From a virus, in IMG/VR virus record IMGVR_UViG_3300045988_134667, positions 8,223 through 72,222 of that record: DNA of 64,000 nucleotides. The stretch is one strand, 5' to 3'. Shown piece after piece: positions 61,202-61,492 of the stretch. Numbering within the stretch: position 1 is the stretch's first letter; each line of letters begins with the position of its first letter. The notes below the pieces were generated by a model. That model was not told the DNA's origin. It searched no databases and saw only the letters and a list, made by a program, of their open reading frames with translations. Made by a program: the position numbers and the translations under genes.

Positions 61202-61492
61202 ATGAATTTTGGACAGGCAATTGAAGCTTTAAGGAACGGTAAAAAGGTAGCAAGAGTTGGGTGGAACGGTAAAGGTATGTTTTTGTATATGACAACAGGA
61301 AGTGTTGTTCATTTAGATGAAATGAAATCAGAAACAGCAAATTATTTAAGAAGTTTTTGTAAAGATAAAGGTATGGACGAAATTGAAATTTGTCCACATA
61401 TTGATATGAAGACAGCAGACAATAAGTTAGTTATTGGATGGCTTGCGAGTCAGACAGATATGCTTGCAGAAGATTGGGACGTGGTAGAATAA
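61202..61492 (+). CDS. DUF2829-family protein (Thoeris anti-defence Tad2-like candidate)
   Basis: N-terminus [27 protein letters not shown] matches the characteristic DUF2829 opening (M.FGEA.EALK.GKKV.R.GWNGKG). Confidence 0.55.
   Translation: [96 protein letters not shown]

Follow-up and report, generated by a model that had tools for sequence, protein, structure and literature searches.

A predicted Tad2-family sponge for the type I Thoeris signal, encoded behind Tad4 in a two-gene phage cassette

The subject of this analysis is a gene at positions 61202..61492 (+ strand) of a 64,000-nucleotide stretch of viral DNA, taken from positions 8,223 to 72,222 of the IMG/VR virus record IMGVR_UViG_3300045988_134667 and hereafter called the window. 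The encoded protein is quite probably a Tad2-family sponge for the type I Thoeris signal, and its gene is the second of a Tad4–Tad2 pair predicted to form a two-step anti-Thoeris cassette. As a family member the protein is ordinary: it is a new representative of the well-known Tad2 family, which numbers thousands, with at least 7,931 database proteins matching at E ≤ 1e-5.

The open reading frame (ORF) begins with ATG, encodes 96 residues and ends in a TAA stop codon. A strong ribosome-binding site, AAAGGAG, lies at 61183-61189, 12 nt ahead of the start codon. The original prediction, made from the sequence alone, had described this ORF as a DUF2829-type (Tad2-like) candidate anti-Thoeris protein on the strength of its N-terminus; the coordinates, the + strand and the opening of the translation were reproduced exactly. 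That prediction had tied its claim to a DUF2829 profile match, and the match we find spans the full domain: Pfam PF11195 ('Tad2-like') is matched over profile positions 1-73 of 73 at 95 bits (E 3.9e-27), well above its curated cutoff of 25 bits. The ORF also matches PHROG 1048 (E 2.3e-30) and PHROG 872 (E 7e-27). A sequence search of the PDB returned seven distinct sequences, all from the Tad2 family, with E-values from 1e-15 to 2e-23. They include SptTad2 (8wjd, E 2e-23), HgmTad2/AcrIIA7 (8kbi, E 2.6e-21), pdAcrIIA7 (9kzr, E 2.5e-20), ModTad2 (8v3e and 9eib, E 5e-19) and SPO1 Tad2, gp34.65 (8sme and 8wje, E 1e-15). Together with the fold and the ligand-contact residues described below, these matches bear out the Tad2-like identity.

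An AlphaFold2 (AF2) model of the monomer, built from a 53-sequence alignment, is confident, with a predicted local distance difference test score (pLDDT) of 89.3 and a predicted TM-score (pTM) of 0.71. Its elements are a helix at residues 3-11, strands at 15-19 and 25-31, an insertion, strands at 60-63 and 66-70, a helix at 84-88 and a strand at 93-95. This arrangement matches the layout of the Tad2 fold, namely an N-terminal helix, an antiparallel β-sheet, an insertion after β2 and a short C-terminal helix. When the model was compared with the PDB using Foldseek, all 24 matches at E ≤ 0.001 were Tad2 structures (TMq 0.57-0.73), and the next match had an E-value of 0.5. The comparison with SPO1 Tad2 proposed in the original prediction yields the same fold, with a TMq of about 0.6 for the predicted model. 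Against alleles that are 82-94% identical in protein, the ratio of nonsynonymous to synonymous substitution rates (dN/dS) is 0.07-0.18; the gene is under purifying selection.

The predicted ligand is 1''-3' glycocyclic ADP-ribose (1''-3' gcADPR, or 3'cADPR), the second messenger of type I Thoeris. Tad2 tetramers sequester gcADPR, preventing activation of the effector ThsA, and most Tad2 homologs that have been tested inhibit type I Thoeris; only about 1% of Tad2 proteins are predicted to be unable to bind gcADPR. The protein studied here, the query, was aligned with HgmTad2, SptTad2, ModTad2 and SPO1 gp34.65 (translated from L098). Contact residues were taken from PMC10680739 for HgmTad2 and from bioRxiv 10.1101/2023.05.01.538930 for SPO1 Tad2, and conservation was counted over 53 members of the query's Tad2 clade. 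The query keeps ten of the 12 residues through which HgmTad2 contacts gcADPR (W21, N22, G23, M69, V77, W80, L81, S83, T85 and D86), and the other two (A78, replaced by T71, and T82, replaced by K75) carry the residues found in SPO1 Tad2, T65 and K69. Likewise, 8 of the 10 SPO1 gcADPR contacts are identical; W25, N26, W73, S76, T78 and D79 of SPO1 Tad2 align with W21, N22, W80, S83, T85 and D86 of the query without a change, and SPO1 I63 is replaced by M69, the HgmTad2 residue. The HgmTad2 residues W21, N22, G23, W87, L88, S90, T92 and D93 are all retained in the query and are 96-100% conserved across the clade. By query numbering, W21, N22, M69, W80, S83 and D86 are invariant among the 53 members, and G23, D73, V77, L81 and T85 are conserved in at least 96% of them.

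The closest relatives of known structure point in the same direction. HgmTad2 (identical to AcrIIA7; 8kbi-8kbm) and SptTad2 (8wjd) are the best matches in both sequence and structure, with 43-44% identity and TMq values of 0.73 and 0.68, respectively. The query shares with both the GWNGKG loop and the WLASQTDML helix, and it has an extended β2-β5 insertion of 34 residues. SPO1 Tad2 (gp34.65; 8sme/8smf/8smg), the founding type I Thoeris sponge, has the same fold at about 40% identity, and the query sides with it at T71 and K75. ModTad2, also called MoTad2 (8v3e, 9eib), which is a sponge for the His-ADP-ribose (His-ADPR) signal of type II Thoeris and for Pycsar, also has the same fold (E 5e-19, TMq 0.68). 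However, ModTad2, which does not inhibit type I Thoeris, has WTPSVSD in place of the WLASQTD helix motif common to the query, HgmTad2 and SptTad2, and differs in addition by a one-residue deletion ahead of the tryptophan. By its residues, the canonical pocket of the query appears intact and of the type I, gcADPR-binding kind.

Directly upstream of the Tad2 gene, at 60828..61169 (+), lies a gene for a 113-residue protein that matches Pfam PF25186, 'Type I Thoeris inhibitor Tad4', with an E-value of 2.4e-36 and 124.9 bits (cutoff 25) over profile positions 1-111 of 113, and phrog_9822 with an E-value of 2.4e-49. Mechanical ORF calling places this gene at 60801..61169 (122 residues), with the ATG at 60801 falling inside a conserved intergenic motif. 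Nearly all of the 1,357 Tad4 homologs found are 113-116 residues long, open with MKI... and align from M10 of the long ORF; the true start is therefore 60828. The gene is under purifying selection (dN/dS 0.09-0.16). The AF2 model of the window's Tad4 is a five-helix bundle (pLDDT 83.3, pTM 0.79), and neither a sequence search nor a Foldseek search of the PDB gave a significant match for it. Two reports (PMC13402655; bioRxiv 10.64898/2026.01.28.702374), both of them citing Yirmiya et al. (Cell 2025), state that Tad3-Tad6 or Tad3-Tad7, Tad4 among them, bind ThsB and insert a flexible loop into its Toll/interleukin-1 receptor (TIR) active site. Two segments of the modeled protein are candidates for such a plug. 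The C-terminal tail, RKWHNKEYxYDGDGVVNPA, is near-invariant and is the least confident part of the model (pLDDT <50 at residues 103-113), and a second, invariant loop, ADTEGITG (residues 62-69), connects two helices; either may enter the ThsB active site.

Tad4 and Tad2 are separated by a spacer of 32 nt (61170..61201, +) that contains the Tad2 ribosome-binding site. No terminator-like site was found in 60100-62600, and because none lies between the genes, the two are probably co-transcribed as one transcription unit. At least six metagenomic contigs, some as long as 256 kb, encode the identical 96-residue Tad2, and Tad4 is directly upstream in each of the five distinct places listed. A 94% identical Tad2 allele, P0003, which the collection lists in 73 blocks, is preceded by Tad4 in 5 of the 5 places examined, with varied flanks. 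Thus, Tad4 precedes Tad2 at 10/10 loci whose Tad2 alleles are at least 94% identical to the query. The more distant alleles P0010 (85%) and P0012 (82%) occur in related large phages and lack Tad4.

Outside this lineage the two families are found apart. In isolated phages, Tad4 occurs almost solely in large Bacillus myoviruses, at about 60% identity to the window's protein; these are Bastillevirinae such as Deep Blue, Bcp1 and BM15, and the Deep Blue Tad4 locus has no Tad2 neighbor. None of the 80 closest IMG/VR Tad4 loci (85-92% identical; the best 80 of 271) has a match to the Tad2 hidden Markov model within 4 kb of Tad4, and the abundant metagenomic Tad4 clusters P0121, P0143 and P0186 are likewise without Tad2. 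Conversely, no Tad4 lies within 5 kb at any of the 80 closest Tad2 loci (40-82% identical) from bacterial genomes. In these known loci, then, Tad4 has no adjoining Tad2, whereas in the window the two form a single cassette. The Tad4–Tad2 pairing is lineage-specific.

The cassette moves between large phage genomes as one unit of about 800 bp. By blastn, the segment 60787-61589 is 98-99% identical in the contigs L001, L002, L004 and L005, and the flanks are otherwise unrelated; a further contig, L003, is the same genome as the window, with 100% identity from 57944 to 64000. Comparison with a second version of the cassette (L086/L088) and with a stand-alone IMG/VR Tad4 allele (L006) reveals a mosaic. 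Between 60850 and 61050, the window's Tad4 shares 94-100% identity with L006 but only 58-88% with the L086/L088 cassette. Past about 61050 the relationship switches: the 3' end of Tad4, the spacer and Tad2 match L086/L088 at 88-100% (the spacer at 100%), and beyond about 61170 the window is unrelated to L006. Synonymous divergence (dS) from L086 agrees with this mosaic, being 0.83 for Tad4 and 0.22 for Tad2. The recombination breakpoint lies in Tad4 at about 61050, and the exchanged 5' two-thirds cover the most variable part of the protein (approximately residues 25-75); the stand-alone allele of the L006 type comes from IMG/VR phages of 50-60 kb. Because Tad4 was partly exchanged and the pairing was kept, the pairing itself may be selected, although the evidence is weak, coming from a small sample dominated by a few phage lineages.

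The borders of the cassette coincide with a repeated intergenic module. The upstream module (60720..60800, +) carries, 31 bp apart, two copies of the palindrome CTATATATAG (60731-60740 and 60762-60771), and after them the motif AAGAAATATCGGTTTC at 60785-60800. The downstream module (61491..61589, +; repeat families D18 and D20) is a second copy of it, with CTATATATAG at 61502-61511, a degenerate CTACATATAG at 61533-61542 and the motif AAGAATTTTCGATTTC at 61556-61571. The left border of the cassette, at 60787, falls inside the upstream motif, and the right border, at about 61573-61589, is associated with the downstream motif copy. The module, of about 80 bp, occurs three times in the window (49154-49223, 60731-60800 and 61502-61571), and the latter two copies bracket the cassette; in L001, L004 and L005, the downstream module travels with it. 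Both components are strongly overrepresented: the palindrome has 5 copies in the window versus 0.06 expected, and the motif AAGAA-N6-RTTTC has 10 copies versus 1.09 expected. The five + strand intergenic copies of the motif, between 49 and 64 kb, each lie 15-35 nt ahead of a start codon; those outside the three modules are at 57902 and 63799. The modules look like phage-specific promoter or operator elements. A promoter-like TTGGGA-18-TATACT is present at 61474-61503, but a promoter scan gave 7 sites versus 14.9 in shuffled sequence and is uninformative in such AT-rich DNA. A search of 56-64 kb against Rfam matched the repeated modules to no known RNA family. The cassette probably moves by recombination at the short conserved motifs at its borders.

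Taken together, these data allow us to propose how the pair would act. By analogy with solved Tad2 proteins, the query would assemble into a homotetramer whose two pockets, lying between protomers, would bind 1''-3' gcADPR; with the messenger sequestered, the ThsA effector would never be activated. Tad4 would bind ThsB and lower signal production by blocking its TIR active site, and Tad2 would absorb what leaks past Tad4, so that one pathway would be hit at two steps. Such a combination would relax the stoichiometric constraint on a sponge and would deal with ThsB variants that escape Tad4. The cassette itself would pass from one large gut-type phage genome to another, probably through recombination at the short conserved intergenic motifs.

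Sponging of a different signal, either as the main ligand or as an additional one, is an unlikely alternative. Tad2-family members cover type I, II and IV Thoeris, the cyclic oligonucleotide-based antiphage signaling system (CBASS) and Pycsar, and several inhibit more than one system; a protein with this fold could bind His-ADPR (type II Thoeris), N7-cyclic ADP-ribose (N7-cADPR; type IV Thoeris), a cyclic dinucleotide of CBASS or a cyclic mononucleotide of Pycsar, using either the canonical pocket or a second one formed by the insertion. The insertion domain holds such a second pocket in HgmTad2, SptTad2 and MoTad2; that of HgmTad2 and SptTad2 is built by a 35-41-residue insertion and binds cGG and 3'3'-cGAMP (PMC10680739). 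The β2-β5 insertion of the query has 34 residues (32-65; 27-36 across the clade), which places it between SPO1 Tad2 (24) and HgmTad2 (41) and just below the range of the cyclic-dinucleotide binders. F44, which occludes the second pocket in SPO1 Tad2, corresponds to E40 in the query; 52 of the 53 clade members have a basic residue at position 42, and H66 is invariant. HMMER moreover pairs K42-S43 with the phosphate-binding K46-S47 of HgmTad2, but this pairing is ambiguous, as MAFFT places A46/N47 there. On the other side, the R31A/N85A, F70A and S47A substitutions in HgmTad2 each abolish binding of cGG/cGAMP (PMC10680739), and R31, F70 and N85 correspond to T31, I63 and I78 in the query, with T/V, I and I/V across the clade; the S47 equivalent is S43 by HMMER and N47 by MAFFT. 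Because residues validated by mutation are replaced, a guanine-reading, cyclic-dinucleotide pocket of the HgmTad2 type is ruled out. The canonical pocket, for its part, resembles that of type I binders and not that of ModTad2. A bolder proposal makes the pair a selected, mobile, two-layer anti-Thoeris module, held together even as recombination swaps the Tad4 allele and spread through recombination at the repeated intergenic motif. In the same proposal, the clade's 34-residue insertion, which has the near-invariant basic residue at position 42 and the invariant H66 but lacks guanine-reading residues of the HgmTad2 type, could form a second pocket for an immune signal so far unassigned to Tad2. 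We regard this fuller version as tentative and rather doubtful.

Two further readings depart more sharply from a Thoeris sponge. An anti-CRISPR protein of the AcrIIA7 type would bind tracrRNA along a basic groove in its tetramer, thereby preventing assembly of the Cas9 ribonucleoprotein. The query does match AcrIIA7/HgmTad2 and pdAcrIIA7 well (the E-values are given above), and two of the five basic RNA-binding residues are kept, R11 and K24. These two are conserved family-wide, including in SPO1 Tad2, and hence do not discriminate. In pdAcrIIA7 the groove is formed by K58, K66, K71, K93 and R101, and mutation of K66 abolished RNA binding (PMC13133391). This lysine, K19 in HgmTad2, is V19 in the query, and two more of the positions fall in ambiguously aligned sequence. 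The query is also acidic (isoelectric point 5.10, net charge -4.3), unlike the near-neutral HgmTad2/AcrIIA7 (7.90, +0.7). The anti-CRISPR activity of AcrIIA7 is itself contested, with micromolar protein needed in vitro, and the adjoining gene encodes a Thoeris inhibitor, not an anti-CRISPR. The acidic protein and the valine at position 19 led us to reject an RNA binder of this type, and we consider the reading extremely improbable. Nothing positive speaks for a DUF2829-fold protein that has no anti-defense role or is a decayed relic. Strong purifying selection, the identical protein on at least six contigs in differing contexts, the good ribosome-binding site, ligand-contact residues that are invariant in the clade and the linkage to a second anti-Thoeris family all argue against such a relic, which makes it very improbable.

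Several observations nevertheless weigh against assigning the protein to a two-step block of type I Thoeris. The Tad2 family is functionally diverse, and sequence alone leaves the ligand unfixed. SPO1 H71, which coordinates water, is replaced by I78. Among isolated phages, the nearest Tad2 has no more than 57% identity. That Tad4 and Tad2 act in synergy is suggested by their adjacency alone. Finally, the only hint of a host is weak: a contig assigned to the metagenome-assembled genome of an uncultured member of the Lachnospiraceae encodes an 82% identical Tad2 homolog. On balance, a type I Thoeris sponge remains the favored assignment.

The original prediction also placed the gene in an anti-defense island at 60-63 kb that would include a P-loop kinase-like protein, a PcfJ-like protein and a Thg1-like protein. 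The idea of an island holds, though for another reason: the true partner gene is the Tad4 gene directly upstream, which that prediction does not mention. Two of the named neighbors are confirmed by Pfam, the PcfJ gene at 58642-59715 (PF14284, E 1.1e-21) and a full-length gene of the Thg1 tRNA-His guanylyltransferase family at 62491-63348 (PF04446, E 3.7e-30; phrog_4717, E 1.1e-88). The P-loop-like ORF (173 residues, 60168-60689) has only a Walker-A-like motif, AFPACGKT, and a sub-threshold match to AAA_18 (E 0.14). Two adjacent anti-Thoeris families in variable flanks do support a local concentration of anti-defense genes, but the P-loop-like, PcfJ and Thg1 genes show no link to anti-defense. 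The P-loop-like gene, the PcfJ gene and a gene for a 146-residue protein flank Tad4 and Tad2 in this one genome only, and of the 5 related contexts that carry P0003, 2 contain Thg1 and 2 contain a 286-residue ORF, a recurrence that looks like common phage backbone. We therefore dropped the P-loop-like, PcfJ and Thg1 genes as island members, as they show no co-occurrence with the cassette beyond that backbone. Loose Pfam scans of the P-loop-like protein and of the 286-, 146-, 193- and 73-residue neighbors gave nothing above threshold. Ten further ORFs at 49-56 kb yielded only an MT-A70 methyltransferase and a weak AP2 match, with no other anti-defense family. As far as the evidence goes, the island is the two-gene cassette within a variable accessory region. 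The Thg1 gene lies two genes downstream of Tad2, and its homolog at L087:5411-6272 is split into ORFs of 78 and 216 residues, probably by a frameshift. The related contexts L091, L093, L094 and L096 carry RNA ligase, KTI12/AAA_33 kinase-like and PTH2 genes, which suggests that the accessory region carries RNA-repair functions.

Tad4 is also found beside other genes. In four loci of an abundant phage group (L179:3345-4076, L182:3345-4070, L183:1940-2683 and L184:3345-4076), Tad4 (91% identical) overlaps by 4 nt with the next gene, which encodes a metallo-beta-lactamase-fold protein of 241-247 residues (PF00753, 30.7-44.6 bits). This could be a second Tad4 pairing, with a signal-degrading partner. 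An 'Apyc1' (anti-Pycsar) label attached to this protein by faint or weak precomputed matches was not recovered in our own scan, which returned only the generic metallo-beta-lactamase fold. Other Tad4 alleles (L185:3470-4201 and L186:3361-3867, and also L187, L188 and L189) are consistently followed by a conserved gene for a 243- or 168-residue protein with no Pfam match; these genes are candidates for anti-defense partners. Lastly, P0184 is a 152-residue Tad4 homolog annotated with both PF25186 and PF13671 (AAA_33). Gene calling may have fused it to a P-loop kinase-like gene upstream, which resembles the P-loop-like ORF that precedes Tad4 in the window.

The window looks like part of a large uncultured phage. 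Its GC content is about 32%, and from about 8 kb on it is coded almost wholly on the + strand, with strong positive GC skew. The switch in strand and skew at about 4-8 kb, from -0.19 with minus-strand ORFs before it to +0.2 to +0.38 after it, could mark a divergent transcription point or a replication origin. A megablast search of 58-64 kb against 50,697 phage records gave no match, so the phage has no close cultured relative. The window encodes an integrase (phrog_1, 29322-30326), tRNA-Gln and tRNA-Met (31882-32188), a DNA methyltransferase (phrog_116, 45503-46933), a transposase (phrog_506, 47874-49040) and the MT-A70 methyltransferase noted above (54680-55246; PF05063, E 2.5e-29), which constitute cargo of the mobile-element and anti-restriction type, and it also encodes an ATPase. 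No structural genes are recognizable among its larger annotated ORFs. A 685-residue ORF at 37585-39642 matches phrog_1735 (unknown function) end to end, with an E-value of 4.7e-267, which makes it a large and highly conserved phage protein. Related contigs, which reach 256 kb, encode SPbeta-type YorF and YorH, AAA_24, DnaB/DnaG and homing endonucleases. Judging from the sample names, the material may come from human-gut metagenomes.

By itself, the Tad2 gene alters nothing in the understanding of its family; its context is more useful. In the accessible literature on these inhibitors, we found no mention of a Tad4–Tad2 tandem, which is a modest new arrangement and not a new kind of system. The nearest parallel is a hotspot of N4-like phages that holds Tad2, Tad3, Acb4 and Sequestin, along with described fusions of Tad2 to Acb4 and to Sequestin. 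There, too, inhibitors of nucleotide-signaling immunity cluster at one variable locus. However, those cases involve sponges for different signals or systems, or a fixed hotspot, whereas the cassette described here joins a blocker of the enzyme to a sponge of the same pathway and occupies differing places in genomes. Its motif-bounded borders and the breakpoint within Tad4 provide a concrete example of the shuffling of anti-defense genes among large uncultured phages. Adjacency to Tad4 or Tad2 may also help to find new inhibitors through guilt by association; the metallo-beta-lactamase-fold gene that follows Tad4 in another phage group is an example. If the proposed roles are correct, the cassette would be a natural case of a phage blocking one signaling pathway at two consecutive steps. 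It makes testable the idea that a blocker and a sponge together are sturdier than either alone, for example when signal output is high, when ThsB variants evade Tad4 or when decoy systems penalize sponges.

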